This document shows positions 1 to 21,693 of a DNA stretch of 64,000 nucleotides, in pieces. The stretch comes from a virus. Under the pieces are notes generated by a model, which ran no database searches, was not told where the DNA came from, and saw nothing but the letters and a program-made list of their open reading frames with translations. The stretch covers positions 55,027-119,026 of the IMG/VR virus record IMGVR_UViG_3300029309_000001; one strand, given 5' to 3'. The position numbers and the translations under genes were made by a program. Within the stretch, counting starts at the first letter, position 1. Each line of letters opens with the position of its first letter.

Positions 1-666
1 TAATATTTGTTTTTGTTCTTCAGGTGGTAACTGATCTATCATTTGCATCATAGCTTGTTCTTCATTAAGTTTATTTACTTTTTGAACAAACTGCATTGGA
101 TCTATTTTTTTAGACATTAAAAATGGATAAGCTGCTAAAGGCACACCATCTTCAAATTTCTTTTTACTTTCTGATACAAATGCTAATTCAGATAATTTCA
201 TTTTATTTTTTTCTAACATTAACTCTGCACTTCTTGTAGTTATATCATCTACAAATTCATCATTTAAAGCTGAATAGTATTTGTTTAATGGAAATTTTTT
301 AGATACAGCAGCAGGAGTCATTTTCTTTTTAGAATTAATATTAAATCTAGTAAGCTGATCTTTATTAAGTTTCATTTTAGCAGTATCTGAAAAAATAAAT
401 GATTGAGGAGGTAAACTTAATGCAGTTCCACCTTGTGGATGTCTTTTACCACCAATGTTATACAGCTCAAAGTTACCATCATTAGTTAAATCAGTTAATG
501 CTGTCTCACCTTTTTCTGCTTCTAAATTAGCAAAGGATCTTGGTATAGGTCCTAATGAATTACCATAAGGTGCTCCACCTGTAGCCATAACTTTTACAAT
601 TTTACCATTTTTAAATTTATATCCGTTTGGTAAATTTCCTATTTTTACTTTTACTTTTTTTCCCAT
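1..666 (-). CDS. Virion cargo/internal protein, N-terminal part (runs off the window edge)
   Basis: Open frame from ATG at 666 (MGKKVKVKIGNLPNG...MATGGAP...NLEAEKGETAL...IGGKRHPQGG) with no stop to position 1. It follows the other giant cargo genes in the same direction. Confidence 0.7.
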   Translation of the reverse strand, partial: MGKKVKVKIGNLPNGYKFKNGKIVKVMATGGAPYGNSLGPIPRSFANLEAEKGETALTDLTNDGNFELYNIGGKRHPQGGTALSLPPQSFIFSDTAKMKLNKDQLTRFNINSKKKMTPAAVSKKFPLNKYYSALNDEFVDDITTRSAELMLEKNKMKLSELAFVSESKKKFEDGVPLAAYPFLMSKKIDPMQFVQKVNKLNEEQAMMQMIDQLPPEEQKQIL

Positions 667-668
667 AA

Positions 669-3600
669 TTATATAATTTCTATGTCTGCTCCTGCAGCTA
701 ATAATTCATAATACATATCTGTATCAATACTTACTGTTTTTTCTTTTTGTTCACCACCATCTTTAAAGAAGAATCCTAAACCTCCTGAATACTCCCAATT
801 ACTTGTTGAAGGATTATAAGTAACACCTGCATTTAATAATCCATATCTTGCTTCTGCTCCTATTTTTAATCCGTCATTGCTTTTATAATCTGCAAATAAA
901 TCTAATTGACCTTGAGGAACATAATCATGTTTATCTTTATACATAAATCCAAGACCAGATTTATAAATTGTTTGAGGAACTGGTGTTTTAAATTGTAAAC
1001 CTGCTCTTCCACCATAATAAGGACTAACCATTTCTTGATCATTAAAGTCAATACCACCATATCCTTCTAGCATTATACCAGCAGGTCCTGAAGTAGGTAA
1101 CCCATAAAAATCTTGATCAAGTCTTAATCTAGCTCCTATGTCACCTTTAGCTGTCAGTTTAGTAAAAGGATTTCCTTCATTATCCATTTCTGTAGTTTCA
1201 AAAGGGCTAAAGTTAGTATAAACACCTCTTTTAAATCTACCACCTCCTGCATCTCTGCAACTACCACCCCAACAATTTACCATATCTGCTCCAAAAAATA
1301 AATTTAACGGATGCTCACCACTTTGATATTCAACACCAAATCTTGGATTTGTTAATCTTGTTCCTCTAAAACCATATTGAGCATTAGGTAATTCACTACC
1401 ATATTGACTAAAACCATCTTGTCTTGAAATTACTTTACTATCTGTAAACATAAGTCCTGTGTTTTCATCTTCTTCTCCTCTAGATAATGTATCAGCTGCC
1501 ATTACATTGTATGCATCATCTGAAGATCTAGTAGCTAAATTATAAGCTTGTTCTTTTCCTTCATTTATTTGATCAAATATTTTATTACCAATACCTGCTG
1601 CTTCTTTTAAAAACTTTGCACCTTTTTCAAAACCTTGAACTACTTTACTATCTCTAACATAGTTAAGTTTATTTCTCATTCTTTCTCCAAAAGTATCACC
1701 CCATCTATCTCTTCTGTCTTGTCTTCTTTGTTTTCTTAAAGCTTTTTCTTCTTCTTTTGCTGCTTGCATATCTTCATAAGATTCAAAACCTGCTTCTATA
1801 GCTTTATCTTCTCTTCTTTTATCTCTACGTACACCTCTAAGTTGTCTTCTACTTAAAGTATTACCATCTCCTTCAAATGCAAAATCATCAGTAACATCAA
1901 ACTCTGGTGTAACATTTGCTTGATCAACAAACATATCTTGTTCTGTATTAAATACATCACCATAGGATCTATTGATAGAACCTTCTTTTGGTTTAAATGT
2001 ATTCATATCTATATCTCTTCTTCTAACATCATATGTATTAGCTGCAGATTTTTTCATTCCTTGATTAACTGCATTAGCTGTAAACATATCACCTACATTA
2101 CGGTTTATTGTACCAGTCTCATCTGAAAATGCATCACCTACTACATTAAATTGATCTGAATCAGGAGTGTTAAATCCTTGATTTTCTTCTGTTGCATCTA
2201 CCCATTGACCTCCTTGCCATACATCACCATATGAACTAATAGCTCCTTCTTTAGGCATACCAGCTTCATAATCAAATTGTTCTGGATTTACCATATACAT
2301 TGCTGCTGCATCTTGTGCACCATTTTGTGCTTTATATAATGATCCACCAGTTTGTTTAAAATTACTAAATGCATTATAATTTATACTAGGTGTAGTGGTT
2401 AATCTTTGTGGTGCATATAATGGATTTACAATTGCACTTGAAAAATCTTTATTTCTATAGTTTTTTAACATATCTAATTGTGTTGTTTGTTTGCTAAAAG
2501 GATTAACATTAAATAATGGTGTTTTAAAATTATCTGCTTGATTTAAACGAGTATTAATTAAATTAACACCTTTTTGATTTAATGCAGGAAAAGTTTTATT
2601 AAGTGTTTTTAATTGATTAAAGTTTTTAGGTAATACATTAACAAGACCTGTGTTACCTACACCACTTAACTCAAGAGCACCAAGTGCTAAATTACCAAAA
2701 CCTTCACCAGTTCTACCTTCAGAAAAATCTGTATAAGCTTCAGGTAATGTATTTCTTAAAGCTTCTTGTGACCAATATGCATTATTTAATTGACCAAATG
2801 TTACTGGTGCTCCTATAGTTGAACTACCTGGTACAGTTACACGTGCAAGTTTATTTGCAAGACCAAGACCTCCTCTAACTACACCTACACCACCAACTAA
2901 AGCAGGAATGTAACCCATTAAACTATTCATTTCATAATCAACTGGACCTTGATCAACAAACATTGGGTTTAATAAATTTTCGTTATCACCTATACTTAAA
3001 AACTCATTGCCTGTATTATAACCTATAGTAGGTCCACCATAACCTCCTTTTGATCCTTTAAAATATGGATTAAGACTAGTTAAAACTGCATCTTCATAAT
3101 TGTCTGGTGTTATTGTTTGATAATCTGATTTATAATTAGCTACAATTTGATTCCTAAAATCTTCATAAGACATAGGTTCTCCTTCTTTAAGAACTCCATC
3201 ATTTTGATTTAATATAGGTTTAGCTTTTACAATAGTTCCACCACTTAAATCACTATTATTAATTCTTTTAATATTACCATCTGCTGTCCATTGTTCTCCT
3301 GAAGCTAAGTTAGGATAATTTACACCAGGTGTACCAATTTGAGGTTTATAATCTCTTACTAATTCTTCATAGTCTTTAGCTATTATATTTTCATATAATG
3401 AAGATCTATTAGCATCATAAAAAGTATTTTCTAAATTTAAATTATTTTCATCACCCATTTCAGCATCTTTTCCAAAATTATATATGCTAGTTAAAGGTTC
3501 TCCATTTACAGTAAGTTTGCTTACATCTTGTAAATTTAAATTATATTGATTAGCAAAATTTATAACATCTTTTAAGTTAGAAAAATTTCCTGTTCTTACT

Positions 3601-5741
3601 TCTTTTTGTTCTACAGTTTCATTTCTATATGGATATACTTGTCCTTCATTATCAACAGTCCAAAATACATTTGGTGTTGTTTCATACTGTAAAAATGGAT
3701 CTCTTGATAAATTCCATTCTTGTGCTTGTTTATTTAAATTATATAATTGTGTTCTTCCTTCTCTTGTTGAAGGGTTAGGAAAATTTGGAAAGTCTCTTAT
3801 AATGTTTGAATAAAGATTAAATTCATCAGCTTGTGGCCATGTAGATTTATCTTTAATATTTATACTTCCAGCTCTATAATTAGAATTTCTAGCATCTCCA
3901 TATCCTGCTCCAAGAGCAAGTAAATCTTCTTGCATTTTTAACCACAATTCTAATTGTTGATCTGTCCAATCAGGAATTTCACTTTTATTTTGAAAATGCA
4001 TTAGATCACCACCATCACGTAAAAATGAAAAAGTAGGGATAGAACCACCGTATTTTAAATCAGGATCAAATTCCATATCATCAAGATTAGCATCTTCAGG
4101 TACACTTTCATTATTTTTTTCTTGTGATGTAGGTTCATTACATTTACAATTTGCTGCATCCCAATCTCCAGGTGGTGTTAGCTGTGCACATTTTTCCTGT
4201 AACTCAAAACAATCATTTGCAGTTTGTTGAGAACTTTTTTCATAAGTTATGTTAGTAGGATTTTCTGCATCAAAAGGAATATACTTATATTTTTTTTGTC
4301 CTCTTTCATCAACACCATCAAATACATAAGAACCTTGTATGCCTGTATTATCTTCATTATGAACAAGCATAACAGCATCAGGTACATATTCTGTTTCAAT
4401 CATATCACCTAATAGCTTATCTCCTTGATAAGTTATATTACCATCCATATCCATACTAGATATTTGATATAAATCAGGATACGCAGCAGTTCTATTGTTA
4501 ACATATTGATTATACTCATTCATTCTTTTCTCTTCGTATGTTATGAGTTTATCTGGTTGTGTTGGATCAAAGAATCTAGTTTCATCAAATGGATTTGTTA
4601 TTTTAAATTGTTGATAATTTTCTTTACCCCATCTATTATTACCTGCACTTGGAAATGCAAGCTTTGCCATTTGATTTATTTCTTTTTTAGAGGCATCAGG
4701 ATTTTGTTCTCTTAAAACCTTTTTAAAATTTCTAAATTCTTTTTTAGTTATTTTATTTGGATCAACATCAAAGTTTTGAAAATCTTTAATTCCACTTTGA
4801 AATAAATTTACTATATCACTTAATATGTTAGTATCTTCTCCTGCATTATACATCATAAAAGGTTTAGTATCTACTTTATTAGATCTATCACGTCTTCTTT
4901 TACCACGTTTAGTTTGCCAATCTGCAAATTTATTTAATATTTGATTTTCTTGATTATTTTTTGCATCAAATATATCTGTATTATTATCTAATCCTTCACA
5001 TACTCCTGTTAAAGAATTATAATTTCCACCTTTTGCAGCACACTCATCTGCTTTTGCAACCTCTGACTCAACTTCATTTATTATATCTTCTTCACTTTTA
5101 TTGTTATCTTCAGCTCCTGGATAATTAGTTTCTGCATCTTCCATTCCTTCAACATCATCATTATCTCCATCATCTTGGAATTTTTTTAAAGATCCTCCAT
5201 ATTCAAATGTAGGCATTTGTTGTTGAGGTATTATAGCTTGTTGAGGTTGCATAGATTGTTCTGGTGCTTGTTGTTGCATAACCATTTCTTCTTGTGGTGC
5301 AACAGCTGGTTCATTTAAACCAGGCATTTGTAAACCTTCTTGTATTTGTTCTACAGTTTCTTTTGATTCTTCATAATCAGAAACACTTTGATTTTGTTTA
5401 CTATAAGAACTGTCATTATTTTTTAATGGTCCCCCTTTTTCATAACTATCACAAACATTTTGTTCAGTGCATTTAAAATCATTACTCCAGCAATATCCAA
5501 TATTACCTGACTTATCATTTATACACTTTTTCATTCTATTTGATATGTCAAAAAATATACAAATACCACATTTATCTTCTGAACTTGCTTTACCATAATT
5601 AAATCTAGAAATAGCTCTTTCTCTATTATCTAAATTTAAATCTTGATCAATAGTAGCATCAGGACATGGCGTAACTTGTTGAGTATCACCACCTTCTTGA
5701 TAAACTTCTAAAGTTTGTATGTTAGGGTATTTTTTTGCCAT
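669..5741 (-). CDS. Giant (1690 aa) modular virion cargo protein
   Basis: Long ORF downstream of the tail genes, where crAss-like phages place cargo/ejection proteins. It has an N-terminal Cys-rich domain, repeated xxGG-x-L-x-K-x-Q linkers and a C-terminal amphipathic beta-strand region. Confidence 0.7.
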   Translation of the reverse strand: MAKKYPNIQTLEVYQEGGDTQQVTPCPDATIDQDLNLDNRERAISRFNYGKASSEDKCGICIFFDISNRMKKCINDKSGNIGYCWSNDFKCTEQNVCDSYEKGGPLKNNDSSYSKQNQSVSDYEESKETVEQIQEGLQMPGLNEPAVAPQEEMVMQQQAPEQSMQPQQAIIPQQQMPTFEYGGSLKKFQDDGDNDDVEGMEDAETNYPGAEDNNKSEEDIINEVESEVAKADECAAKGGNYNSLTGVCEGLDNNTDIFDAKNNQENQILNKFADWQTKRGKRRRDRSNKVDTKPFMMYNAGEDTNILSDIVNLFQSGIKDFQNFDVDPNKITKKEFRNFKKVLREQNPDASKKEINQMAKLAFPSAGNNRWGKENYQQFKITNPFDETRFFDPTQPDKLITYEEKRMNEYNQYVNNRTAAYPDLYQISSMDMDGNITYQGDKLLGDMIETEYVPDAVMLVHNEDNTGIQGSYVFDGVDERGQKKYKYIPFDAENPTNITYEKSSQQTANDCFELQEKCAQLTPPGDWDAANCKCNEPTSQEKNNESVPEDANLDDMEFDPDLKYGGSIPTFSFLRDGGDLMHFQNKSEIPDWTDQQLELWLKMQEDLLALGAGYGDARNSNYRAGSINIKDKSTWPQADEFNLYSNIIRDFPNFPNPSTREGRTQLYNLNKQAQEWNLSRDPFLQYETTPNVFWTVDNEGQVYPYRNETVEQKEVRTGNFSNLKDVINFANQYNLNLQDVSKLTVNGEPLTSIYNFGKDAEMGDENNLNLENTFYDANRSSLYENIIAKDYEELVRDYKPQIGTPGVNYPNLASGEQWTADGNIKRINNSDLSGGTIVKAKPILNQNDGVLKEGEPMSYEDFRNQIVANYKSDYQTITPDNYEDAVLTSLNPYFKGSKGGYGGPTIGYNTGNEFLSIGDNENLLNPMFVDQGPVDYEMNSLMGYIPALVGGVGVVRGGLGLANKLARVTVPGSSTIGAPVTFGQLNNAYWSQEALRNTLPEAYTDFSEGRTGEGFGNLALGALELSGVGNTGLVNVLPKNFNQLKTLNKTFPALNQKGVNLINTRLNQADNFKTPLFNVNPFSKQTTQLDMLKNYRNKDFSSAIVNPLYAPQRLTTTPSINYNAFSNFKQTGGSLYKAQNGAQDAAAMYMVNPEQFDYEAGMPKEGAISSYGDVWQGGQWVDATEENQGFNTPDSDQFNVVGDAFSDETGTINRNVGDMFTANAVNQGMKKSAANTYDVRRRDIDMNTFKPKEGSINRSYGDVFNTEQDMFVDQANVTPEFDVTDDFAFEGDGNTLSRRQLRGVRRDKRREDKAIEAGFESYEDMQAAKEEEKALRKQRRQDRRDRWGDTFGERMRNKLNYVRDSKVVQGFEKGAKFLKEAAGIGNKIFDQINEGKEQAYNLATRSSDDAYNVMAADTLSRGEEDENTGLMFTDSKVISRQDGFSQYGSELPNAQYGFRGTRLTNPRFGVEYQSGEHPLNLFFGADMVNCWGGSCRDAGGGRFKRGVYTNFSPFETTEMDNEGNPFTKLTAKGDIGARLRLDQDFYGLPTSGPAGIMLEGYGGIDFNDQEMVSPYYGGRAGLQFKTPVPQTIYKSGLGFMYKDKHDYVPQGQLDLFADYKSNDGLKIGAEARYGLLNAGVTYNPSTSNWEYSGGLGFFFKDGGEQKEKTVSIDTDMYYELLAAGADIEII

Positions 5742-5820: not shown

Positions 5821-8800
5821 TTATATCATACCTAAAGACTTTAAATGTTTAGTTCCTGCAGGTGTAAGTTTATCTCCATTTTCATATTTTTTAATAAGTC
5901 TATCTGTTACTTTATCAACTTCACCTCCCATTTGCTTTTTAGTTATTCCTTCATTAAATTTTTCTATATATTCTTGAGGAGTTTTATTAGCTTGTCCTGC
6001 ATTAACTCCATATTTATCTGGAAATACAGATTCTAAACTATTACCATCTCTAAGTACATAACCTAAATATTCACGTGTTCCTTGTCTTCCTAAAAAGTTT
6101 ACTAATGCTGCAACTTCTGTTGTAGTATATGGAAAACTAGGTATTTGTTTGCTATAAATTTTATATAAATCTATACCACTTTCTCTTAGACCTTTTACAC
6201 CTTCTAACTTACCTCTATATCTATTTTCAAAATATTTATTCTGTGCTTCTATATCATTAGCAAAATCTTGTCTACTTCCATCATACATTGTAGAAATTTC
6301 ACTAAACCTTTGTCCATATAAACCTGTAGCAGTTGATTCTGGATTAATCATTAGTTCACCATTAAGACTTTCTGCATAAGCAACTCCTTGTTTTAATTTT
6401 TCAAAATCAACCCAATTTGCATCTAATTCACTTGGTGGTATTAATTCTTTAGTATCTGGATGATAATATATTCTTCCATATATATCAAATGGTTTTCCTA
6501 CAATACTTTCTCCTTCAATATTAAAACCTAAACCTGTTGGTATATCAAAATCATATTCATCATAATAAGCATAATAAGGAAGCTCTCTTTCATCATCCAT
6601 ACCTCTTGATATTTGATAATTACTAAGATTAAAACCTCCTGCTGCAGAATCATTTATTTGCCATTTATCTTTTGATGCATCTTTTGTAATACCCCTTTCT
6701 ATTATGTCATCCATAATATCATCAACATTATTAAAAGAATAATAAACAGACTTATCATCTTCTACTCCTAATGTAGGTTTAAATTTAGATTTAGAAACTG
6801 TATTATGTTTTTGATCAAAACCTAAATACATACCCCATAAATCTTCTGAAGCATTTTTAATATATTCTCCAGCATTAGGATTATCTTTAAATCTAGGATG
6901 ATTTTGAAAATCATCAAATGATGTTTCTACACCATCCCACATAAAAGGTTGTTTTTCTCCATAAAGCATTTCTACCATTGCTTGATCCATATTATAACCT
7001 ATAGGTGTTACAGATTTATATAATCTATTTGCTAACCATCCAGGATTATTTTGACCTTGCATTTGAAACTTAGGTAATCTTTTATTATATTTATCTTTTA
7101 TTGATCCACCTGTCTTTTTTTCTTCTAAATTATTTAACTCTAAACCTTCTAACGTAGCTGCTGTTATAGGTACACCAGTTAACATTTTATTTAAAAGATT
7201 TGCAATAAGTTTATTATTTTGTTTAGTATCTTTTGTTTGATCTAATATTCTCATAACATATCCATCATAATCTGTACCAGGTAGTAATTTAGCATTATCA
7301 GCACGTACCTTAGAAATTAAATCTCCTGTTATATTATCATAAGCATCTGATATATATTTATTATCTAATAGATATTGTTGTAACTCTGCAACATGAGCAG
7401 TAGGCTCTATATACAAAGTTCCTGGTGATTCAAAAGATGGTGAATTAGTTTTTTTTGGAGTAACTGTTTTTATTGGTTCGGTCATATAATCTTGAGTTTC
7501 TTTATTTCTTACTCCAAAACCTTTATCTGCATTACCCCATAGTGAATAACCATCATCAATTAACATTTGATTTTTTAATAATGCAGATGATGTAAGACCA
7601 CCATCATCAACAAATTTTAAATTTGGTGAAAACCAATTAGTATTTGCAGCTCCTAATCTTTGATCAAATATTTTTGTTGCATCATCTGTTATAGGTATAG
7701 TAGTAGATCCAAAACCAAAAACATTTTTTTCAGTATTGCCAGAATTTCTTATTAATTTTCCTACATAGTCCAGTGCATGTTGATCTTCATGTCTAAAAAT
7801 ATTTCTTAACCAATTTTCTGGCAATGCATTTGTATTCATACTTACAAAAGGTAATATACCTTTTTCTAATTGATTATAGTTTTCACCTGAAAAGAAATAC
7901 GGACTATCATCTGGACCATATGAATTAAAATTATTTATAATAGGTATTTGTTTATATGTTGCAATAAATTTATCTACATCTGTATCACTTGCATTTGGAC
8001 CTAAATAATTTTCTTTTATTCTTCTACGTCCTTCTGTAGTATTCATTCTTTCAAGAATATCATTTCTTATATTTAAATAAGATGTATTTCCTGTTAAACT
8101 TTTAGACATATCTTTAACGTCCATTGAATGACTACCTGCACCTAATACTGGTTTACCCATTTGAAGTGTACTTATATATTCAGGATTATATATAAGACTT
8201 TTTAAATCTAATGGTTGAACCATAGAAAAATCTTCAAATAAACTTGTTGTTGGTGTTCCTACCTCTCCTGTTCCATAAAGATCTTCAAATGCATTATAAT
8301 TAACATTTCCCCTAGCTTCTCTACCTATTGCTTCATTATGTATTCTTATTAAATCATCATCTAGATCATCTTTAAAAAATGCTAAATCTTTTTTACTTTG
8401 ATCAACTATATCTGTAAAAGTATTACCTGTTAAACCATGATAATTTTGAAAGTATCCTGGTTGTGCATTATAATAATCTTTTCCAACATTTGATATATTT
8501 TTTGATGTGCCACCTAACCAAGTTGGTAAATAACTACGAAGATAATCTTTTGTATCTTTTACTGTTTGTATTGTTTTTTTTATTTTTGCAGGATTAAACA
8601 AATCTTTATATTGTGCTTTTGGTAATGAACCACCAAGTTTATATAAATCTTTTCCTTTAATAGGTATTATTCCTGGAGATTCTATATCTAAATTATATTT
8701 AGATAAATAACTATCAGGCACTTTAACTCTTATATATTGATTTCCTTTTTGATCAGTAATAATTTCATAAGGATAATCTTTTCCAAAAACTTTATTAATA

Positions 8801-11800
8801 TCTTTTTTAAGTTGTTTTTCAGTATTTTTATTTAATATACTTTGATACCTTTTTGGATAAGCAGATGGATTACTAATAGCAGTTACATCATCAGGATTAT
8901 ATCCTTGATTTGTTAAAAAATTATTTCTAATTTCTTCTATTTTATTTTTTTGTTCTTGAAAACCTCCTGAAATTTCTATTGTGTTACCATCTGGTTGTTT
9001 ATAAGTAACAATCATTTTTTTAGGATTAGTTTTATCAAAAGTAAAAGGTCCTAAAGTTTCTTTACCTACAGCATCTGATTTAATTAAATTACCAAGTGTT
9101 TGATCTACTTCACTAAGAAAATCATTCCAACTATGACCAGTCCAATTATATTCTGTATATAAAGGATTGGGTGCTCCAAATTTATCTGCAGTATATCCTT
9201 GAGTTTTTGCAACTGTTGAAGATAATGGTAAATGTAAATAATCTTTACCACTTTTTGCTGAATAATCTGCAAGTTCAGATAATAATATTTGTTGAGGATT
9301 TTTTCTAAATTCTTTTAAATTTAATTCTACTTCAGATGGATTATTTAATTCATCTAATTCTTTTTTATTTTGTTCCTTTATTTCTTTATTTTGTTTTTTA
9401 CTTTTATTTATTAAATTTTCTTCATATTTTATTTTTGAGTCAACAAATGATTTAAATGCAGGATGTTGTGCTATTTCTAATTGTAATTCTTTTGATATAT
9501 TAGGTGCATTTACATTACTTCTCATAATTGAATTAAACTCTTCATTATTAAAAAAGTTATGATTAGATATATCTACAGATGTTTGATAATCTTTATCTGA
9601 TACATTTGGACCACGGTATTCTGCATTTGCACGTATTGAAGGTGATGATCGTATAAAGTCACGTATTGTTCCTATTAAGTGTTGATTTGTCCAATGCATG
9701 CCATCTTCTGTTTCTAACATAGCATCTATAAAATGATAAGCTTCTTCAGGATTTGTATCTACATCTTTGATATAATTTAAAACATAATTATAATTTTCTA
9801 TTTTTCTTAAATGTCCGTCATAATTTACTGGATTTTCTTTACTTAAATAATCTTTTCGGTTTTGAAGATTTTTATTATATTTTTGAGCATAATCAGATTG
9901 TTTTTCTACTGAAATAGTTGCATCAGGAAACTCATCACTAAAGGCAACTCTATTATGTCCTAATACAAGTTTATCTGTTAAATTTTTTCCAAAATGTGCA
10001 GAACCTGTAGTTTTACTATAATCAGTTACACCTGCATCATCTATAGTTGTTAATAAAAGATTTCCTCTTGCAGAATTGTCACCTTTAAAAATATTAGATT
10101 CATCTCCTTGCCAATAAGTTGTAAAGTTAGAAGTAGGAGATTGTAATGATGTATACATTGTTGGAAATAATAATGTAGGATTTAATGATTGTTGAACTTC
10201 ATCTGCAAATGCATTATAATTAATTGCACCTCTACCTCTATTATTTTGCATCATTGTTTCATAAACTCCTAACATTTTTCCTCTGTCATATCTTTCTTGA
10301 GGAGATAAACCTTTAATTTTTTGAAGATATTGTAAAAATAAATTATTGTTTATATCCCCTTTATTATCTATTATTTTAGTAAGTTCACTATCATTTATAA
10401 TTGTAGGTAATTGAATATTAGAAGATTGAAGTGGAATTTGCTGGCTTGCTATATAATCTTGCCAATTTGCATAAGGCCAATTTTGTCTTAACACTGTATT
10501 AAATTGTCCCATTGATCCTGTTGGTTTATTAGTAAATAATGATGGGTTTCTTGTTGATCTATAATTTAAATTAAGTGTATTTTTAGATGGTGAAAAAAAA
10601 CTTTTAACACCTTGATATAAAGTTTTATACTTTGGATCAAATGGATTATACCATTGAGCTTTTGGTAACTGACCACCGTCTCTAGACATAAAATTAGATT
10701 GTCCAAAATCATCTACTATTTCAAAAGGATTATCAGTCCCTTGAGGAGTTTGTTGTGCAACATTATCCATAAGCCATATAATATCTTCATCTGAAAAGTT
10801 TTTAAATAATCTATTATAACCATGCTTTTCTTTCATCTTTTTTAAATCCTCTTCTGTAAATTTTTTATAATCCCCTGAACTATCATATATACCTGATTTA
10901 TCTGCTTGGTATCTAAATTCTATTAAATCAGATCTAACTTCTGATGGATCTGCATTATGAAATCCTGGTGTTGTACTATAATTTCTATCTAACCACCGTT
11001 TAATTTCATTAGGGTTTTCTGTCATGTATTGTTGTTCATCTTCTGATAATTGATTCCATACATTTTGAAATGCTTTATTTCTTTTATTTATTTTAGCTTG
11101 TAAATTTTGATCTCCTACAAAAAATCCACCTTCAGTATGTCCTAATTCATGAGCCATAATATCTTTCTGTTGTTCCTCAGTAAAAGGACCAATATAATTA
11201 TTTATTGGATCTATAGTAATTGAACTTCTAGTTTTAGTAGAATATCCCTTCTTATGTTTATGTTGTCCAAGTGATCCAGTAAACTTTTCTTCTATAGAAG
11301 GTCCTAGAATAATTGGCTCATCTAATGGTTCAAGCCATATAGAATCTTCATGCTGCATTCTATAAGGATAATCATCTATATATTGTAGACCTTGTTTTGT
11401 TCCTGATTTAAAAAAACGATTAGTCCAGCCTGGTTTATCAGAATTATCAATTATTTTGTTTTTTAAATGATCAAAAGTATTACCTTTTAAATATGACCCA
11501 TACCAATCTACTACAGGTTGATATTTATTTGCTATTGCCATCTCTTCATCAGTAAGTGTATTTGGTAATACTTCTCCAGTAGATTGATAATTAGGTATAT
11601 TAAATTGTTCAGCTATTGAATTTTCAATTGAGTCAGCTTGATTAGCTAAAATTAACGCTTTACTAAATTCATCAAATTCTGGTGAGTTAAGTAACACTCC
11701 TTCTTTAGGAGGTTTTTTACCAAGTAATATTTCATATACTTGTATGTCATCTTTATTCATTTCTAGTATATCTGGTATATTAGAAAAATGTGTGCCACTT

Positions 11801-12501
11801 AAAGTAGAACCTCTACCAGTTTCTAATGGTGTAAACATGTTTACTAAAGGAAGGAATTTTGAAAGAGTTTTTCCTAAAAGTGGTTTTATAGCTTGCAATG
11901 CAGTTCTTATACCTAATTGATCAGTATTATCTTCAGAATCTTCTCCCCCATGTTTTTTCTTTTTTAAATTTGGAGTTTTATAACCTCCTTTAGCAAAAGC
12001 ATCAGCTTCTTCTTCAGAATTAAAATAATAAACCTCTCCTCTTTCTAACGCCATTTTAAAAGCATCTTGTTCTTGACCTTTTTGAAACTCTGTCCATGAT
12101 GTAGGATCTGGAGTTTCTTGTCCTTCTACAGTAGGATATAACATTGGTATAACCATATAAATAGGACTACCATCATCATCTGTCATTTCAATAGTAGTCA
12201 TAAGATGTGTAGATACATTTCCCATTTGTTTATTATAATTAGGAAGTAATTTATTATCTCTTTCTGTTCTTCTTTGTTTTACTTTATTTGTTGGTTTGTC
12301 TTGAACAGGTTGTTCAAATACCATGTTACCTGGAAACTTATAATTAAAACCAGGTTGCATTAATTGTTGATTACCAAAATTATCTGTACCCATAACTGGA
12401 AAGTCTACACCTTTCATAGTTATATCTCCAGATGGTATAATATTATAAGGATTATTTACATCCTTACTATTTCTTTTATATCCGTCTTTACTTAATTTCA
12501 T
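5821..12501 (-). CDS. Giant (2226 aa) polyvalent cargo protein with two zincin (HExxH) domains and a C-terminal lysozyme/transglycosylase-like domain
   Basis: Zincin motifs IMAHELGH and FRHEDQH; SLT-like motif GVAYAES-x-NPESTATGLYGQ; GG..AQ/FQ linkers between domains. Confidence 0.75.
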   Translation of the reverse strand: MKLSKDGYKRNSKDVNNPYNIIPSGDITMKGVDFPVMGTDNFGNQQLMQPGFNYKFPGNMVFEQPVQDKPTNKVKQRRTERDNKLLPNYNKQMGNVSTHLMTTIEMTDDDGSPIYMVIPMLYPTVEGQETPDPTSWTEFQKGQEQDAFKMALERGEVYYFNSEEEADAFAKGGYKTPNLKKKKHGGEDSEDNTDQLGIRTALQAIKPLLGKTLSKFLPLVNMFTPLETGRGSTLSGTHFSNIPDILEMNKDDIQVYEILLGKKPPKEGVLLNSPEFDEFSKALILANQADSIENSIAEQFNIPNYQSTGEVLPNTLTDEEMAIANKYQPVVDWYGSYLKGNTFDHLKNKIIDNSDKPGWTNRFFKSGTKQGLQYIDDYPYRMQHEDSIWLEPLDEPIILGPSIEEKFTGSLGQHKHKKGYSTKTRSSITIDPINNYIGPFTEEQQKDIMAHELGHTEGGFFVGDQNLQAKINKRNKAFQNVWNQLSEDEQQYMTENPNEIKRWLDRNYSTTPGFHNADPSEVRSDLIEFRYQADKSGIYDSSGDYKKFTEEDLKKMKEKHGYNRLFKNFSDEDIIWLMDNVAQQTPQGTDNPFEIVDDFGQSNFMSRDGGQLPKAQWYNPFDPKYKTLYQGVKSFFSPSKNTLNLNYRSTRNPSLFTNKPTGSMGQFNTVLRQNWPYANWQDYIASQQIPLQSSNIQLPTIINDSELTKIIDNKGDINNNLFLQYLQKIKGLSPQERYDRGKMLGVYETMMQNNRGRGAINYNAFADEVQQSLNPTLLFPTMYTSLQSPTSNFTTYWQGDESNIFKGDNSARGNLLLTTIDDAGVTDYSKTTGSAHFGKNLTDKLVLGHNRVAFSDEFPDATISVEKQSDYAQKYNKNLQNRKDYLSKENPVNYDGHLRKIENYNYVLNYIKDVDTNPEEAYHFIDAMLETEDGMHWTNQHLIGTIRDFIRSSPSIRANAEYRGPNVSDKDYQTSVDISNHNFFNNEEFNSIMRSNVNAPNISKELQLEIAQHPAFKSFVDSKIKYEENLINKSKKQNKEIKEQNKKELDELNNPSEVELNLKEFRKNPQQILLSELADYSAKSGKDYLHLPLSSTVAKTQGYTADKFGAPNPLYTEYNWTGHSWNDFLSEVDQTLGNLIKSDAVGKETLGPFTFDKTNPKKMIVTYKQPDGNTIEISGGFQEQKNKIEEIRNNFLTNQGYNPDDVTAISNPSAYPKRYQSILNKNTEKQLKKDINKVFGKDYPYEIITDQKGNQYIRVKVPDSYLSKYNLDIESPGIIPIKGKDLYKLGGSLPKAQYKDLFNPAKIKKTIQTVKDTKDYLRSYLPTWLGGTSKNISNVGKDYYNAQPGYFQNYHGLTGNTFTDIVDQSKKDLAFFKDDLDDDLIRIHNEAIGREARGNVNYNAFEDLYGTGEVGTPTTSLFEDFSMVQPLDLKSLIYNPEYISTLQMGKPVLGAGSHSMDVKDMSKSLTGNTSYLNIRNDILERMNTTEGRRRIKENYLGPNASDTDVDKFIATYKQIPIINNFNSYGPDDSPYFFSGENYNQLEKGILPFVSMNTNALPENWLRNIFRHEDQHALDYVGKLIRNSGNTEKNVFGFGSTTIPITDDATKIFDQRLGAANTNWFSPNLKFVDDGGLTSSALLKNQMLIDDGYSLWGNADKGFGVRNKETQDYMTEPIKTVTPKKTNSPSFESPGTLYIEPTAHVAELQQYLLDNKYISDAYDNITGDLISKVRADNAKLLPGTDYDGYVMRILDQTKDTKQNNKLIANLLNKMLTGVPITAATLEGLELNNLEEKKTGGSIKDKYNKRLPKFQMQGQNNPGWLANRLYKSVTPIGYNMDQAMVEMLYGEKQPFMWDGVETSFDDFQNHPRFKDNPNAGEYIKNASEDLWGMYLGFDQKHNTVSKSKFKPTLGVEDDKSVYYSFNNVDDIMDDIIERGITKDASKDKWQINDSAAGGFNLSNYQISRGMDDERELPYYAYYDEYDFDIPTGLGFNIEGESIVGKPFDIYGRIYYHPDTKELIPPSELDANWVDFEKLKQGVAYAESLNGELMINPESTATGLYGQRFSEISTMYDGSRQDFANDIEAQNKYFENRYRGKLEGVKGLRESGIDLYKIYSKQIPSFPYTTTEVAALVNFLGRQGTREYLGYVLRDGNSLESVFPDKYGVNAGQANKTPQEYIEKFNEGITKKQMGGEVDKVTDRLIKKYENGDKLTPAGTKHLKSLGMI

Positions 12502-15500
12502 TATCTAAAAGATATATTCATTTTACTGTTATTTAACTTAAGTAACATTTTTCTATCACCTGAAACATTCTTTCTTAGAACTAACATGTTATAGTAATGT
12601 CTAAACTTCTTTCTTTGTAACTCTGCTTTGTTATAATTAAGATTTGCTTGATTTAAATCTTTTATATAACCATTTAATCTTGTAATCCAAATAGATCTTT
12701 CTATACCACTAAACTCACCTCTATCATCTGTAATATCCCAGAATTGATTAAATCTATATTTTTGCTCTTCCTTAGAATATAAAATTTGTATATCAGTAGG
12801 AGGATTAATTATAGGATATTGATTTAACAAAGGTACATTATTTTTAGGAGATAGATCTAAAGTAAGTAGACCAGATACTTGTTCTGAATTAAATATAACT
12901 GCTTCATCAAAATTCCAATCTAAATCATGCCATTTATCTGTACCTATTAATTGTTGAGGTCTTGGTAAATTAAAGTTTTTATAAACATAAGATTCCATTT
13001 GATATTCAACACTTCTTAATGTATTTACTACTTGACCTGAGTTTTCAATTAATGTAATTTCCCATGGATAATCTTGACCATAGAAGTTTGCATATAAATC
13101 ATTTCTTGCATTATGTTTCCATATACCACCTACTTCATAATTTGCAGGTACACATTGTTGATATTCATAATTACATATTAAAGGATTTGGATTTATATAA
13201 CCTGGTGTTCCTGCTAAAAATAAATCATCACATTGAGTACCAGGCTCAAACCAAGTTGTTGCTTGAGATGGATCAGGCACAGGTATAGGAGGACACTCAC
13301 ATAAAACTCTTTTACATATTGGTGGATTAAATGAACTACAAACTTGACCTGCAGGTACTTCTGTATAACCAGGTGGACATTCACAAGATACACACTGTGG
13401 TAAAGGTGCACTTGGATCTGGATCACATGGTATAGTAGCAGGCGTATCAGGAACAGTATTAGGTGGACAATTACAACTTACTAATGAATCAACTATAAGC
13501 TGTGCTACATCACCATAATTACTTGCATCAACTGCAAAATGATTAACATTACAAACAGAAGGACCTTGATTACCATTAAATCCTCTTGGCGGCATACAAT
13601 TAATAGTATTTTCCCATGCATTACCACAAGCAGGAGCATTACCTGATGCAAATACAGCATATACTTCTACATTAGGAGGAAAATTAGCTGTATTTTGACA
13701 TGCAACATCAGCATCTGTAATAAAAATAGCAACTTGTCTAGTTGCAGTAGATGCACCTAACATACTAGCATCATTAAGTCTATTTAAAGCTGCTTGATAA
13801 GTTGTAGCTGCTCCATTTGCATTATTAGGAATAGCAGTAACATCAGCAGTTACAGTTGCTGCATTTCCGTTAAGAGGTGAAACAATATAATCTGAAGGAT
13901 TTCCACCTGCTGTATTATTATTAGACCAATTTGCTACACCAACTTGTACATTATTTGTACCTGCAGAACCACCATCCATTCCACCAGATAATAAAGTAAT
14001 GCAAGTATTTATAAATTGTTTTTGAAATACTTGTGTATTATTAGCTGCAGGTCTAGTTGATCCAGAATAATCATTTAAAAAGAATACATCTAAATCTTCA
14101 CTAAATGCAGATCTTTCTGTATCTACTGAAGTTACTATACTTTCTGTAAAATCTATTTCAACAAATGCTGGATCTGAGTCAGTAACAGTAATACAACATT
14201 CACCAACGCTAGGATCAAATGAATATCCTGGAGGACATTGTGGTATTTCAGTAGTTACAGTTTTAGATGTCATGAAATGATTAATACTATTGAATGTTAA
14301 TTCAGGGTGCCAATCATGGAATGAGATCCAAGCTTTTGCTTTTGGATCATAACTAACTGTCCAAGAAACATCTTGGAAATATGTTGGGTTATCTAATTGA
14401 AAAGGTATGTAAGTCAATACATCTTCATATATAGGATCTACTTGTTCAAAGCAATCACATTCTTCTGTTACAAAGTTATATGAACAATTAGGTCCACACT
14501 CAGGTGTTACACCTGGGCATATTGCTTCTGCTAGATCAGCAACAATACCTGGTATATTATCAAATTGAAAATTTCCAGCCATAAATGGATTTGGATCTCC
14601 TGTCATAAAATCATTACCTGCCATTGCTTGTGCATAATCTAATTGATCTTGTGTAGGTACATTATTATTTCTTAACCATCCTGGAATTATTTCTAATTGT
14701 CCAATAAAATTAGGATTTGCTGAATCTTGATATTGAGGATTTACATGAACATTAGCTTGTAACCATTGTATAATATCATCATCAAATCCTTGTGATGCAA
14801 ATGAAGCATGAGAGTTACCACCTAAATTTACCATAGGTGGAGTTACAGGCACAGCTACATGTGGAGCATTAATAGCTGATTGTGCGCCTGCTCCTGGTGG
14901 ACAAGTAGGACAACACATAGGAGGGCTTGTTAATTGGTTTGGTCTATTTACAAACCAAAATGGATTAGGTGCTGGAAAAGGATAACAAGTATTATTAACA
15001 TTTGCAACACTAGAAAAACCATCATATAAGAAAACAAGTTTTTTAGGAATACCAACTCTTGCATTTGCAGGATTAAATAATTCATTTATACCAGACCATA
15101 ATCCATCAGCTACATTTGTACCTTGTCGTATAGTTTGACCTGTTCCAACATTATAACTATTTATCCAACCTCCCATAATACCAGAAGGATTTGTTGGAGT
15201 AACAGCAGAAGGATCTGTTTGAGAAATTAAATTATCATTAAATGTTAATCCTTGCGGAGTAGCTAATGCATCATTTATATTACCTGGTTGTACATCTATT
15301 GGTAATTGACTATATACACCATCCCAAGCACGTGTACCAAAAGCCATAATCCCCATTTTTGTGAAACCTAGATCCATGCTATTTCTAAATGCATTAGTTA
15401 AACCTGTAACTAAATTTCTCATTGATGCTACATTATTTTGAGTATTTACAGAAGCAGAAGCATCTGTTACAATCATAATATCAAATTCACATGGTGGAGC

Positions 15501-18500
15501 AGGTGGACCAAATGGAACATCTGTATAAGATTTTTCACACATTTGTGTTGCTGGATTATATGTAAATCCATCAGGGCATGTTATGTTTTGTGCAACACCA
15601 CTACATGCTGTTTCATTATAATAGAATCCATCACATGGTACATACTCAATACATGGAGAGTTTGTATATTGTTCTGATACATTCCAATCTCTTTTAGAAA
15701 AATAAACTATGTCATTATTAGTATCATATACAGTTTGACAACCAGCTGCTGTTACAGGGTTATCAATTATTTGAGGGCAATCTTCTATCTCAGGAAATGC
15801 AGCTAATAATTGAGATGGTAAATATTTATTAAACCACCACTTCATTCCTGTATTAGTTATATTAATTAAACCTTGACCTGATGTTTGAAATATTTTTCCT
15901 TGTTCTTGAGATATATAAAATAATCCCATTGGTGTATTTAAAACTCCTCTTGAACTTTCAGATGAACCATATTCATGAGATACATCAGAGTTTACTACTT
16001 CTCTAAAGTTTCTATCTACAAATAAACCTCCGTCACCAACAGTTATTTTTGTTCCTGCATCTGTAGTTAATTGATCATTACCTGTAAATATTTTTGGTGA
16101 CATTCTAGGAAATAATACCATAGCACCATAACCACTTATAGGTTTAATAGTATTAATTGTATCTTTAAATTCTTTATAGTTTAATGGAAGGAACACTCTC
16201 CAAAAATCTTTCTTTGCTTCTTTTTTTGCTTGTAAAGAATATATTAAACGTTTTTCATATGTAGTATAACAAGTTTCTGCTACTAATGGATCATAATATC
16301 TAGGTTGTATATTACCAAAAGATGTTGTTCTAGTAATAAATTGATCTATACTTAATGCTTTGTCATACTTATAGAAGTTACCTTTTTTAATATGATCAAC
16401 GTGGAATAGACTTGTAAGATCAGAATACTCTAATCTATCATAATGTCTTTTTTCCATATCTTCACCCCAATCTCTAAAGGCTAAGTTTATTTCTGATTCT
16501 ACAAAAAAGTCATTTACACCATTACAATGTAAATACATAAAACCTTCAGTTATATGAAATAAATTACCTCTTCCTCCAGTAGCACCAAAAAATCCAAGAG
16601 TACCTAAAGCATTAAGATCTCTATCTAAATAATAATAATCATTAGGCATTGCATTTTGAAAAGTATTTGCACCACCAAATAACCAACCCATACCTCCAAT
16701 AGCTTTTGTTAATTCATCTAATCTATATTGTTCTGTATTCATCCAATACGTAGGAAATGGTACATTAGGATATTTTCTATAATCAAATACAAAACCATCT
16801 CTTTCATTATCATCTAAATAATCCCAGAAAAAAGGCATAATAGCTTTTTCTGTATATCTATTTATATATACATCACCTCCAAATAATGGTTGTTGTGTAT
16901 TAAATCTTGTTAATGTAGAAATAATAGGATTACCACTTGCATCAGTTGGTAGTTGATCAGCAAAAAATTCTACACATCCACGCATTGGTATTTGTCTTAT
17001 ACTATCTAATTGACCATATTGATTATCAATGTTAAATTTCATAGCACAATAATGTGCTGCAATATTTGTTGTACTAGGACTTCCAGGATTAGTATGATCT
17101 GCTATACCTGCTCCAGCTGGTACAGTTCCAATTGTAAACTTTGAATTATCATTAAAACCTAATTGTGCTGGATTTTGTAATCCTGCACCATCAAGATTTA
17201 CAGCTACAGTTGTAGGTCTATTTAAATTATTAATTCTAATATTAGCATTAAGTTGAGATATACTACCTTTTAAATATCTTGCAGTATCTATAGAATGTCT
17301 AAATACAGTACCTCCTGGTAATTGATTCATATTTCTATACCAACCATGACTGTTATATTTCATGGCAAAATCTTGAAAACTACAAAGATTATAAATTAAA
17401 TCTATAATTTCCTGACCACCAGTAGCAACATAATTTAAAAAAGTTTGAGCTCCTCCTAATAGACCAATAATTCCAGGTGTTTGAGTAAATCTACTTCCTT
17501 TATAAATTCTTTCTGCTTTTGGTCCTATTGTACCTGCTGTATTCCAACGTGTATTTTGTGCTAAATTTATTGCTCCTTGATCTGCTGCTTGAGCAGCACT
17601 ACCAAAAGCTCCTCCTCCTACTATTAAAGCTGCATCACCTAAAGTTCTACCAGTTCCCATACCAGGTGTTCCTCCTGTTGCATTAGTTCTATCAGTAATA
17701 GCACCACTTGTTAACCAATTACCATTACCCCCAGCCCAACCTGAAGCATGAGGAGCAGCTCCAGTTTGACCTCCACTTCTTGCAGTAGTAGTTTCATTAA
17801 AACTAGGACTTGTTGCATTAGCAGTAGCTGACCATCCATTAGCAAATGCATTACCTGGTGTCATAACTATATTAGTACTATTTCCAGTTTGTGCTTGCCC
17901 TCTTTCTTGACCCATATTATAAGACTGACCAGTTGTTATTTTTCTATCAATTGGTCCTCTCATTTCATACATTGCATATCCTATACCTATAAAAGCTGCT
18001 AAGATAGCTGTTGAATTACGTAATAATTTTTCACCTGGATGCTTTTCAGATTTTTGAAATCTTCCTTTAGCATTACCTGTTAATACACCATATGATTTTA
18101 ATTCATATGCATTTAAAAATGGTCTATTAAACATTAATTCAGGTGAATGAAATGTATGTACATTATTTGAAAATGTATTAATTTGACCACCAAAATTACC
18201 TGTATGAGGACCAAGATCTGTTCCTTGTAACCAGTTTTGCATACCAGTACCCCAGCTTTGAATTGAAACAGTTCCTGTTGGATCTGTAGGTGTTCCAAGA
18301 TTTCCAGGTGATCTTAAATATGGATCTGCTCCTAGATCATTAAATGGATAGTTAGGTATAAAGAATTGTGTTGTACCATCTCCTGATGCTGTTTCTGTAG
18401 GAGCATAAGCTTCCATATTTTTTAATATACCTTTTCCTAATATAGATTTATTACCTTCCCGTGTTCCTACTAAAAATTCATATCCAACTATATTAGTTAT

Positions 18501-20098: not shown

Positions 20099-21016
20099 TT
20101 ATACTCTTCTTCTTGGTGCATGACTTGCAAACATATCATAATAATTATGATATTGTGCTTTTCTATTTACTTCCCAAATTTTTCTTACTTCTTCAAAATT
20201 TGGTGTATTTACAAAGCCAAGAGCATTATTTCTTGCAGCTCTTAATTTAACTTGAATTAATCCAAGTTGTTGTGCAACATTTTCTCCTTGGAAAATCATG
20301 TTTTCTAATATTCTTTCTTTTAGTGCATATTCATAATATTCATTACAATAAGGATGATCTAATACTAATAGTTCACCATCATTATTTTCTAATATACCTT
20401 GATAACTTAAATATACTTTACCTGTTGTAAATGTTGTTAATAAATACCCATCTTGTATTTCTGCTAGATTATGAGATTGTGTATTTAAATTTGGACATTC
20501 ACAACTTACATGAGATGTACTAGTTATACGTAAAGGAAAGAATGATGTATATTCTCTTACTGTAGATTCATTCATTCTTTGAAGAACTATATATTCTCCA
20601 CTAAATGTTGTAACACCTTTACCTCTATCTACTGGACATGTTTTAACAACACATACATTTTCACAATCTTCTGGTTTTGTACATACATGAGGTTGACTTG
20701 GATCTGGTGTCCACTTAGGTTGTGTTGTGTCAGTATGAGTTCCAGATGGTGCAGTATTTACTATTTGATATTCACTACAAACAAATGCATAATTAAGAGT
20801 TTTAAAATCTGAAGGCATTTGTGCTTTATTATGTTCAACATCAATAATTGATTCTTTACTTTGATGTATTCTTAAACCTAAATCATAATTAACTCTTGTT
20901 GCTACTTTAATTAATTGTTGAGGTTCAATCATACCTTCAAGATCATATGTAGAAAAATCTACTTTAACATCTTCTAGCAATTGATCAAATGTTCTATATT
21001 TATGTGATATGGCCAT
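20099..21016 (-). CDS. Tail tubular/ring protein
   Basis: About 300 aa, immediately upstream of the stabilization gene. The C-terminal GYLLTTFTTGKVYLSY..G.L...D motif resembles crAss-like Ttub. Confidence 0.65.
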   Translation of the reverse strand: MAISHKYRTFDQLLEDVKVDFSTYDLEGMIEPQQLIKVATRVNYDLGLRIHQSKESIIDVEHNKAQMPSDFKTLNYAFVCSEYQIVNTAPSGTHTDTTQPKWTPDPSQPHVCTKPEDCENVCVVKTCPVDRGKGVTTFSGEYIVLQRMNESTVREYTSFFPLRITSTSHVSCECPNLNTQSHNLAEIQDGYLLTTFTTGKVYLSYQGILENNDGELLVLDHPYCNEYYEYALKERILENMIFQGENVAQQLGLIQVKLRAARNNALGFVNTPNFEEVRKIWEVNRKAQYHNYYDMFASHAPRRRV

Positions 21017-21018
21017 GT

Positions 21019-21693
21019 TTATTCTCTATTTAGATTTTTATTGTTTTGTGAATCTTCTTGAGGTATTTGTAATCTAGCAACTAATGTTTGCATTATTTGA
21101 GCTTCTATTTCAGTGTAAAGAAATTCAGGTATATTAATTTGTTGTTTATATCTAGGTCTACAATCATCTTCTATATCATCTGTAAACTTAGATATATCTT
21201 CTTCAAAAACACCTTCTAGTTTTATTGCATCCCAATCTACATTAGGTAAATAAATGTAATCATTTAAAAACCAAAAGTATTTATATTTATTATATCTAAA
21301 AGAAGTAGTTTTACTCATTGATGCAAAAGTACCTGGTTGTGTAGGATGACATTCTATTGATCCATCTATAGATGATATTGTTCTAATTAAAGGTCCCCAA
21401 TAACCTTCAAAAAATGTAGGCAATTTGTCTTTTGTTCTTTTTATAGTCATACCACTTTTTATACCTGCACATTCTGCTTCAACTTTATCTACATCTATTA
21501 ATTCTAAAAAAGGTAAAGTTTGCCACACACTATTAAATTTCATAAGTTTATTAGCATTATCCTGCCTTCTCATTAGTGTTTGTGCAAACTTTATTACCAT
21601 GCTATAAAGAAATCTATCTGTTACAAATGCATCTTGTACATTTCCTTTTATTTGATTTCTTACTCTTGATATAATATCTCCTATAGTTGTCAT
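21019..21693 (-). CDS. Tail ring/structural protein
   Basis: Synteny in the crAss-like tail block. The N-terminus (MTTIGDIISRVRNQI..D..VTDRFLY) is typical of ring proteins. Confidence 0.55.
   Translation of the reverse strand: MTTIGDIISRVRNQIKGNVQDAFVTDRFLYSMVIKFAQTLMRRQDNANKLMKFNSVWQTLPFLELIDVDKVEAECAGIKSGMTIKRTKDKLPTFFEGYWGPLIRTISSIDGSIECHPTQPGTFASMSKTTSFRYNKYKYFWFLNDYIYLPNVDWDAIKLEGVFEEDISKFTDDIEDDCRPRYKQQINIPEFLYTEIEAQIMQTLVARLQIPQEDSQNNKNLNRE

Follow-up and report, generated by a model that had tools for sequence, protein, structure and literature searches.

A 64,000-nucleotide stretch of the IMG/VR virus record IMGVR_UViG_3300029309_000001 (positions 55,027 to 119,026; hereafter the window) encodes a protein of 1690 amino acids (aa), P0001, which carries near its C-terminal end a 204-aa segment that most likely folds as a ten-stranded, up-and-down β-barrel of the membrane type, resembling those of outer-membrane proteins (OMPs). 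Comparison of homologs indicates that the segment is an autonomous module, a mobile cassette lying between linkers of the G-S-E-L-P-(N/R)-A-Q type on one side and of the x-G-G type on the other. With modest confidence we favour the reading that a cargo- or ejection-type protein carries the barrel, which is ejected and inserts into the outer membrane to act as an anchor or as part of a passage.

Sequence pattern and predicted fold of the module

The gene for P0001 (the carrier) is on the minus strand, and the C-terminal 276 aa of its product (window 672–1499, minus strand), designated P0002, provide the residue numbering used for the module. The strands listed are those predicted by AlphaFold2.

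669–5741, minus strand: carrier open reading frame (ORF), 1690 aa (P0001), with the barrel module near the C-terminal end
1377–1400, minus strand: upstream linker G-S-E-L-P-N-A-Q (P0001 aa 1448–1455), a cassette junction common to homologs
765–1376, minus strand: predicted barrel module, 204 aa (P0001 aa 1456–1659, P0002 aa 42–245)
1257–1274, minus strand: C-W-G-G-S-C loop joining predicted strands 2 and 3, with an invariant Cys pair and W-G-G
765–800, minus strand: last predicted strand, N-W-E-Y-S-G-G-L-G-F-F-F, with a β-signal-like ending
753–764, minus strand: downstream linker K-D-G-G (P0001 aa 1660–1663), both Gly invariant
672–752, minus strand: conserved C-terminal tail, 27 aa, with a short predicted helix
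P0002 49–59, 65–77, 87–105, 111–130 and 141–152: predicted strands 1–5
P0002 159–171, 198–206, 210–219, 222–229 and 234–244: predicted strands 6–10

An initial annotation of this DNA had described the segment as a barrel-like run of alternating Gly/aromatic strands, bracketed by linker motifs and lacking a signal peptide. All of the strings that it quoted are present in P0002, namely LPNAQ (37–41), GIMLEGYGGIDF (141–152), YYGGRAGLQFK (161–171), GQLDLFADY (197–205), LKIGAEARYG (211–220), LNAGVTYN (222–229), WEYSGGLGFFF (235–245) and KDGG (246–249); LPNAQ stands directly before the module and KDGG directly after WEYSGGLGFFF, and the module has the extent proposed there (765–1376). The carrier ORF has a hydrophilic N-terminus with no signal peptide, and 1455 residues precede the module. 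The FFF at the end of the module is internal, being 31 residues short of the carrier C-terminus (KDGG plus 27 conserved residues). The 27-aa tail is kept even in orthologs that have no module and therefore is, on this comparison, an element separate from it.

The strand alternation exceeds chance. The mean alternating hydrophobic moment of the module is 0.585 versus 0.418 ± 0.048 in shuffled sequences (n = 2000; z 3.5), a value attained by 3 of the 2000 shuffles and by none of 125 other 204-aa segments of the carrier (maximum 0.505). The composition also differs from that of the rest of the carrier, with Gly at 16.2% versus 7.7% and F/W/Y at 15.7% versus 10.0%.

AlphaFold2 was uninformative on the single sequence (predicted local distance difference test score, pLDDT, 32.8). 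When supplied with an alignment (A2) of 10 rows, 37–89% identical to the query and forming about four identity groups, it predicts 10 consecutive strands arranged as an up-and-down barrel, with a predicted template modelling score (pTM) of 0.58 and a mean pLDDT of 62.7; the divergent P0009 and P0013, P0018 (1921 aa, 89% identical to the query) and P0020, which was found later, were left out of A2. The pLDDT is at least 70 at 134 of the 276 residues and below 50 at 105, the strands lying mostly at 70–91, with blocks reaching 81–91, and the flanks, the 174–195 loop and the tail being low. The five models are concordant (59.6–62.7). Strands average 12.6 residues, two of them having 19–20; the connections at the termini side have 9, 10, 26 and 2 residues and those opposite have 5, 5, 6, 3 and 4, and the hairpin of strands 3 and 4 protrudes on the side opposite the termini. 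As a prediction, the closed ten-stranded barrel is well supported.

Residues are distributed unevenly between the two faces of these strands. The hydrophobic face (62 positions, 10 strands) is composed of L (17%), A (13%), G (12%), F (10%), Y (8%) and W (6%), with 6% charged residues, and the polar face (64 positions) of G (20.6%), D (11%), K (11%), N (9%) and R (8.5%), with 36% charged. Invariant positions are more frequent on the polar face (20 of 64) than on the hydrophobic one (8 of 62; Fisher p 0.018), and those on the polar face include R124, R126, D130, E145, Q169, K171, D200 and R218, on five adjacent strands. Greater conservation of the polar face is the reverse of what a soluble hydrophobic core shows, and a Gly-rich, conserved polar face is usual for the lumen of an OMP. 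In the loop between strands 2 and 3, all 10 aligned sequences share C76, W77, G78, G79 and C81, the fifth loop residue being Ser or Thr; the invariant positions of the module include no His or Ser hinting at an enzyme of the omptin, PagL or LpxR type.

Depth in the barrel was counted from the short-turn side of the strands, with a 6-residue offset for strands 3 and 4 (the long hairpin). On the hydrophobic face, aromatic residues account for 35% at depths 1–4, 10% at 5–9 and 45% at 10–13, and charged residues for 2%, 5% and 0%, respectively; in the query alone, aromatics are present at 14 of 33 end-zone versus 2 of 24 middle positions (p 0.0065). The hydrophobic face is thus two aromatic belts, about nine residues apart, flanking an aliphatic and nearly charge-free core. 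Two such belts enclosing an aliphatic core, when combined with a conserved face of Gly and charged residues, are the signature of an outer-membrane barrel.

Searches with the predicted structure point in the same direction. Using VIA-align against 48,161 chains, the best match is the designed transmembrane barrel TMB10_163 (8uzl; Z 13.3, root-mean-square deviation 2.9 over 138 of 143 target residues), followed by OpcA (2vdf; Z 11.8), VhGalP (11.2), Legionella porin I (11.1) and BrkA (11.1), and then by Hbp (10.5), KdgM (10.3) and EspP (10.2), with the omptin pOmpT (7xw0) at 9.7. The top eight are all membrane barrels, as are 16 of the top 20 rows. Structure prediction followed by Foldseek, the check that the initial annotation had proposed, gave two matches in the PDB at E ≤ 0.001, both of them chains of 8uzl, and its barrel-like description stands to the extent that a closed ten-stranded barrel is predicted with transmembrane barrels as its best structural matches. 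Structural neighbours in BFVD include phage proteins named as OMP β-barrel, porin domain or autotransporter β-domain. Among language-model neighbours, all below 0.9 and treated as leads only, are Phage_OMP, BcsS, OMP_b-brl, Tsx, NfrA_C and PagL; the nearest named ones are Gly-rich insect attacins and gloverins (0.87–0.89).

A cassette between short linkers

A HMMER search through all 1.84 billion representatives yielded 13 hits at E ≤ 0.001, including P0015 (E 3.2e-4, seven repeated stretches), which looks like a low-complexity chance hit and was set aside. Profile searches on a word index returned 3 proteins of near length, 7 longer ones and 6 for the upstream region. IMG/VR gave nothing with the single protein and 1 locus out of 52 pattern matches with the alignment, and a metagenome scan gave 6 loci out of 162 pattern matches; the only new sequence among these seven loci is L005. 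There are 12 distinct canonical modules (in P0001, P0016, P0018, P0020, P0004, P0005, P0006, P0017, L005, P0007, P0019 and P0008), so that the family is tiny, and the carriers belong to a small clade of marine crAss-like phages. The region that follows the module in P0008 looked lysozyme-like; it matches 0 Pfam families, and we make no such claim.

The initial annotation had the module bracketed by linker motifs, and in the homologs it is at these motifs that the module is present, absent or relocated, for which reason we regard it as autonomous. Nine full-length orthologs of the carrier are available. Six contain a canonical module (P0001, P0004, P0005, P0017, P0018 and P0020), two have a divergent Gly/aromatic module (P0021 and P0022), and one (P0010) has none, its LP-x-x-Q and GGE linkers being bridged by 14 residues such that the module is missing exactly between the two; the fragment P0011 likewise has no module between them. 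P0018 has an additional insert of about 200 aa flanked by duplicated GSELP(R/N)AQ linkers. P0007 and P0019 (about 900 aa) share backbone blocks that are 86.5–89.7% identical and carry the module at different sites (aa 567–793 in P0007, aa 145–374 in P0019), in each case at a GGN-I site, the modules themselves being only 65.7% identical. Across the carriers, the module is located in the N-terminal part, in the middle or at the C-terminal end.

In P0021 and P0022 strongly diverged Gly/aromatic modules, each with a Cys pair near its start, occupy the slot flanked by the LP-x-A-Q and GGE linkers. The match of divergent modules to canonical ones is limited to the final two or three strands and the tail, as checked on P0009, a fragment form of the P0021 module, and on P0013, an N-terminally truncated fragment with a C-terminal end of the same kind. 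The slot between the linkers thus seems, on these comparisons, to evolve fast.

Linkers of the G-G-x-L-P-K-A-Q type are restricted to three adjacent genes, encoding the 2226-, 1690- and 1123-aa proteins, and are absent from the other six large proteins of the genome; one pattern gave seven regular-expression matches, and a looser pattern also takes in L-P-K-F-Q. Linkers coincide with insertion/deletion boundaries in homologs. Because the same type recurs at many cassette junctions they look like domain joints, or they could be recombination points. A literature search for the LPKAQ motif returned unrelated papers only. The start of the 1123-aa protein has no significant likeness to the C-termini of P0007 and P0019 (E 0.17 and 0.84).

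Gene context and comparison with known systems

The source record (119,026 bases, about 30% G+C) is complete according to CheckV. The carrier is the second gene after a muzzle-like ORF of 2528 aa and is downstream of two tail ring genes that, by their family matches, mark a tail and cargo gene block. Neighbouring features in the window are:

20099–21016, minus strand: tail ring protein R1 (Pfam CrAss_Ring_1, 36.7 bits, cut-off 27)
21019–21693, minus strand: tail ring protein R2 (Pfam CrAss_Ring_2, 62.7 bits, cut-off 27)
12501–20087, minus strand: muzzle-like virion protein, 2528 aa (phrog_15100 and phrog_37948, 'virion structural protein'; homolog of phi4:1 gp042)
aa 2000–2128 of the 2528-aa protein, near its C-terminal end: VWA domain (PF00092, 34.1 bits, cut-off 23.8)
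5821–12501, minus strand: upstream neighbour of the carrier, 2226 aa, with linkers of the same type
1–666, minus strand: N-terminal 222 aa of the next gene (1123 aa in full), the last of the three linker-bearing genes

Downstream in the genome are ORFs of 1123, 1105, 5018 and 1867 aa without a family match. The 2528-aa protein matches 38 phage records by tblastn, of which 28 are Flavobacterium phages and seven are Cellulophaga phages, and the host is therefore probably a marine member of the Bacteroidota, with an outer membrane. Its homolog in Cellulophaga phage phi4:1 is gp042, and the phi4:1 record annotates the genes that follow (gp041 to gp037, and gp035) as virion proteins identified by tandem mass spectrometry (MS/MS), gp036 being hypothetical; parts of the 2226-aa protein match two of these MS/MS-annotated proteins, gp041 and gp040. 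At a further locus, L002, a module-bearing protein of 922 aa (P0007) is encoded directly after a crAss_MUZ protein (Pfam, E 5.6e-63), the place that the cargo protein gp45 has in PhicrAss001. The third gene after the muzzle there (L002:11592-14693) codes for a protein of 1034 aa, in which aa 932–987 are a Peptidase_M15 cell-wall hydrolase domain, as would suit a block of ejected proteins that breach the envelope.

The carrier thus has the same gene position, after muzzle and ring genes, as the cargo and ejection proteins PhicrAss001 gp45/gp46, T7 gp14 and N4 gp52. T7 gp14 is helical and N4 gp52 is predicted to be so; the module, as a predicted β-barrel, departs from both. According to two papers on these systems, gp45 of PhicrAss001 adjoins the muzzle gene, has a predicted transmembrane helix and is expected to form a transmembrane channel with gp46 (PMC10172136); T7 gp14 and N4 gp52 are the known outer-membrane parts of podovirus ejectosomes, gp52 being predicted to be elongated and α-helical (PMC13434306); and podovirus ejection proteins are expected to serve in passage through the envelope (PMC10172136, PMC13434306). 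A literature search with supplements outside its scope found no account of a cassette with an OMP-type barrel in the cargo or ejection proteins of crassviruses.

With OpcA, pOmpT and TMB10_163 the module shares the predicted strand number and the all-next-neighbour up-and-down topology, and two-faced strands with aromatic end zones are likewise features of ten-stranded outer-membrane and designed barrels. Identity to OpcA, pOmpT and 8uzl in the structural alignments is 7–12%, with no Pfam or NCBIfam match. The module differs from OpcA, the omptin and 8uzl in having no signal peptide, in being embedded in a 1690-aa phage protein, in its long connections on the side of the termini, and in the invariant Cys pair of the CWGG(S/T)C loop.

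The β-domains of autotransporters also score well (BrkA 3qq2, Hbp 3aeh, EspP 8qp5, AIDA-I 4mee and NalP 1uyo; Z 9.4–11.1), and they share with the carrier the joining of a large 'passenger' to a terminal membrane barrel; the BFVD neighbours include phage proteins of 608–1078 aa named 'autotransporter beta-domain containing'. Autotransporter β-domains have 12 strands. The module differs in having 10 predicted strands, no helix predicted to run into the barrel and no Sec signal, and in occupying a central or near-N-terminal site in other carriers; the Pfam autotransporter family does not match it at E ≤ 10.

Standalone phage OMPs, including lambda Lom, those of huge phages and the cyanophage family PF24653 (IPR056410), are like the module in being phage-borne barrels of the membrane type, and differ in being small separate proteins with signal peptides that are made in the infected cell, whereas the module is an internal cassette of a giant protein lacking a signal peptide, in a tail/cargo block. 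The PF24653 cluster is a language-model neighbour of the module (0.87, a lead only), and the PF24653 HMM gives no match at E ≤ 10. Lom and the huge-phage OMPs act at the surface of the infected cell, and the huge-phage study describes standalone OMPs and required a signal peptide (bioRxiv 10.64898/2026.10.24.761521).

Proposed ejection and alternative readings

We propose that the carrier would be packaged in the virion and extruded through the tail at infection in an at least partly unfolded state, comparable to what has been proposed for the PhicrAss001 cargo. The barrel segment would then fold into the outer membrane of the host, either spontaneously or assisted by the β-barrel assembly machinery (BAM), and the inserted barrel would anchor the ejected protein or contribute to the stretch of the ejection channel that crosses the outer membrane. 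We infer all of these steps, from packaging and unfolded extrusion to membrane insertion and function. Delivery by the virion had been suggested in the initial annotation, and gene order, with the carrier following the ring and muzzle genes, is the evidence for it.

Several observations weigh against the ejected barrel. It is by synteny that the carrier is placed in the virion; it has no signal peptide; and tblastn of its C-terminal part against 50,697 phage records found no match, the whole carrier matching a phage record only through aa 26–106. The variable site of the module among carriers is a misfit to a model with a single order of exit. As to the barrel itself, the Foldseek E-values are marginal (5.5e-4) and the alignment is shallow (10 rows); a profile search of the PDB gave 0 hits; NCBIfam matched 0 of 6 family members; and Pfam gave for the C-terminal part only OprB (E 0.018, 14.9 bits with a cut-off of 22.9), which, occurring below the cut-off in one of six members, we take as chance and not as membership. 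It is only by composition and residue conservation that the hydrophobic side is taken to point outward, entropy does not differ significantly between the faces (p 0.10), and the belt analysis used a 6-residue offset for strands 3 and 4 that was set post hoc. The connection lengths in the model are the inverse of those in classical OMPs, soluble ten-stranded barrels appear in VIA-align from rank 9 (Rv2717c Z 10.0, Rv0813 9.6, nitrobindin 9.3), and the module ending resembles a β-signal yet is internal.

Some of these points are what would be expected of a soluble up-and-down barrel of the nitrobindin, Rv2717c, lipocalin or LolA type, with a hydrophobic interior and no insertion into membranes, which might serve a virion protein for packing or for binding a ligand or lipid. 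Its Z scores come near those of the membrane barrels (LolA is at 7.9, and RsfG, at 8.8, is the fourth soluble protein in the top 20), strand alternation by itself suits either orientation, and the missing signal peptide, the lack of a sequence match to an OMP family and the longer loops on the side of the termini would all agree with it. We nevertheless consider it unlikely. Of the 28 invariant strand positions, 20 are on the polar face, which would be the exposed one and is 20.6% Gly, a pattern unusual for an exposed surface; the hydrophobic face is aromatic in its end zones and aliphatic in the middle; membrane barrels fill the top eight structural matches; and the strands are long, with their mean of 12.6 residues and two of 19–20.

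That the barrel is an artefact of prediction, the region being Gly/aromatic and β-prone with some other β architecture or partial disorder, is improbable in our estimation. The alignment of 10 rows, the global scores (mean pLDDT 62.7, pTM 0.58, 105 of 276 residues below 50), the failure of single-sequence folding and the attacins and gloverins as nearest language-model neighbours would be consistent with it, but the five models agree and have strand blocks at pLDDT 81–91, the fit to 8uzl over 138 of 143 target residues is that of a regular closed barrel, strand periodicity is significant independently of the model, and the invariant Gly and charged positions track the strand register.

The ending of the module bears on a further alternative. 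The initial annotation had seen there a cryptic β-signal, to be exposed by processing near KDGG, with superinfection exclusion or a BAM decoy as possible functions. The consensus β-signal has an aromatic residue at the very C-terminus. In the last strand, Gly is found at position -5 in 10 of 10 aligned sequences, and the terminal residue of canonical modules is Phe in 11 of 12 (Leu in P0007), an ending that resembles a β-signal; that of the divergent modules is I, L, F or I. The ending is internal, with 31 residues following in P0001 and hundreds in P0007 and P0019. Internal β-signals exist in inverse autotransporters, and exposure by processing may therefore be unneeded. Cleavage at GG-X is carried out by adenain or Ulp-like proteases; a search of the 119-kb genome confined to Peptidase_C48, C39 and C5 found none, other protease classes being unscreened, and nothing indicates that cleavage occurs. 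Processing at the linkers is neither supported nor required by the ejection model.

A module cleaved free in the infected cell and acting as a superinfection-exclusion OMP, or as a decoy occupying BAM, is a very remote prospect to our minds. Phage OMPs acting on the infected cell surface are known, as described above for Lom and the huge phages, and the last strand does end like a β-signal. Those proteins are standalone, and the huge-phage study required a signal peptide, whereas the module is 1455 residues into a protein made in the cytoplasm; with no signal peptide, it therefore has no route to the periplasm from the inside. The GG-specific peptidase families searched for are not found, and the gene belongs to a tail/cargo block. 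There is no evidence for either function, and both are a poor fit to a domain buried in a signal-less protein of 1690 aa.

A more specific version of the ejected barrel, which we think rather doubtful, would make it an 'inward autotransporter'. The barrel would insert from the outside, the five short hairpin turns crossing first, and would serve as a portal or anchor that threads the remaining cargo into the periplasm; such insertion would account for the long loops staying on the side of the termini. If this were so, crass-like phages of marine Bacteroidota would bring with them an exchangeable, host-matched outer-membrane channel module, and rapid divergence of the module together with swapping at the GG/LPxAQ joints would represent host-range adaptation.

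How the proteins and DNA of crassviruses and other short-tailed phages cross the outer membrane is unsettled. A membrane-type barrel in proteins at the cargo position would be a different solution, with an architecture borrowed from host outer-membrane proteins, and an unfolded, extruded chain would be the starting state for the folding of such barrels. The swapping of cassettes at short conserved linkers also shows how these giant proteins are built from exchangeable parts. The immediate reach is narrow, the clade being small (13 hits in 1.84 billion representatives); the module is small (204 aa), sharply bounded and expressible alone, and the idea is directly testable.

The remainder of the carrier and its large neighbours have few matches. 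P0001 as a whole matches 0 Pfam families and no PHROG at E ≤ 0.001 (there is only a hit at 0.083, elsewhere in the protein), and phmmer found 0 PDB chains at E ≤ 0.1; the 2226-, 2528- and 5018-aa proteins also have 0 matches each in the PDB by phmmer. The sole carrier region matching a cultured phage record is the Cys-rich N-terminal segment at aa 26–106 (window 5424–5666, minus strand), which is 29% identical (E 1e-6) to an ORF of Actinomycetia phage DSL-LC01 annotated as 'high potential iron-sulfur protein' and is without a Pfam match. The 2226-aa neighbour has H-E-x-x-H motifs at aa 451 and 1571 (window 11137–11151 and 7777–7791, minus strand), in regions with no Pfam or PHROG match, which could be metallopeptidase sites. 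The 5018-aa ORF (G000:C1:33879-48935), beyond the window and in the same block, matches nothing by sequence in Pfam, PHROG or the PDB, and from its position might be the virion RNA polymerase region of a crass-like phage; none of nine large proteins, this one included, contains a D-x-D-G-D polymerase motif. Within the group of tail genes, a gene at window 22260–23441 (minus strand), flanked by those for the ring proteins and for an fn3-domain protein, encodes a 393-aa protein matching the PHROG 'DNA repair exonuclease' (phrog_704, E 3.5e-42).

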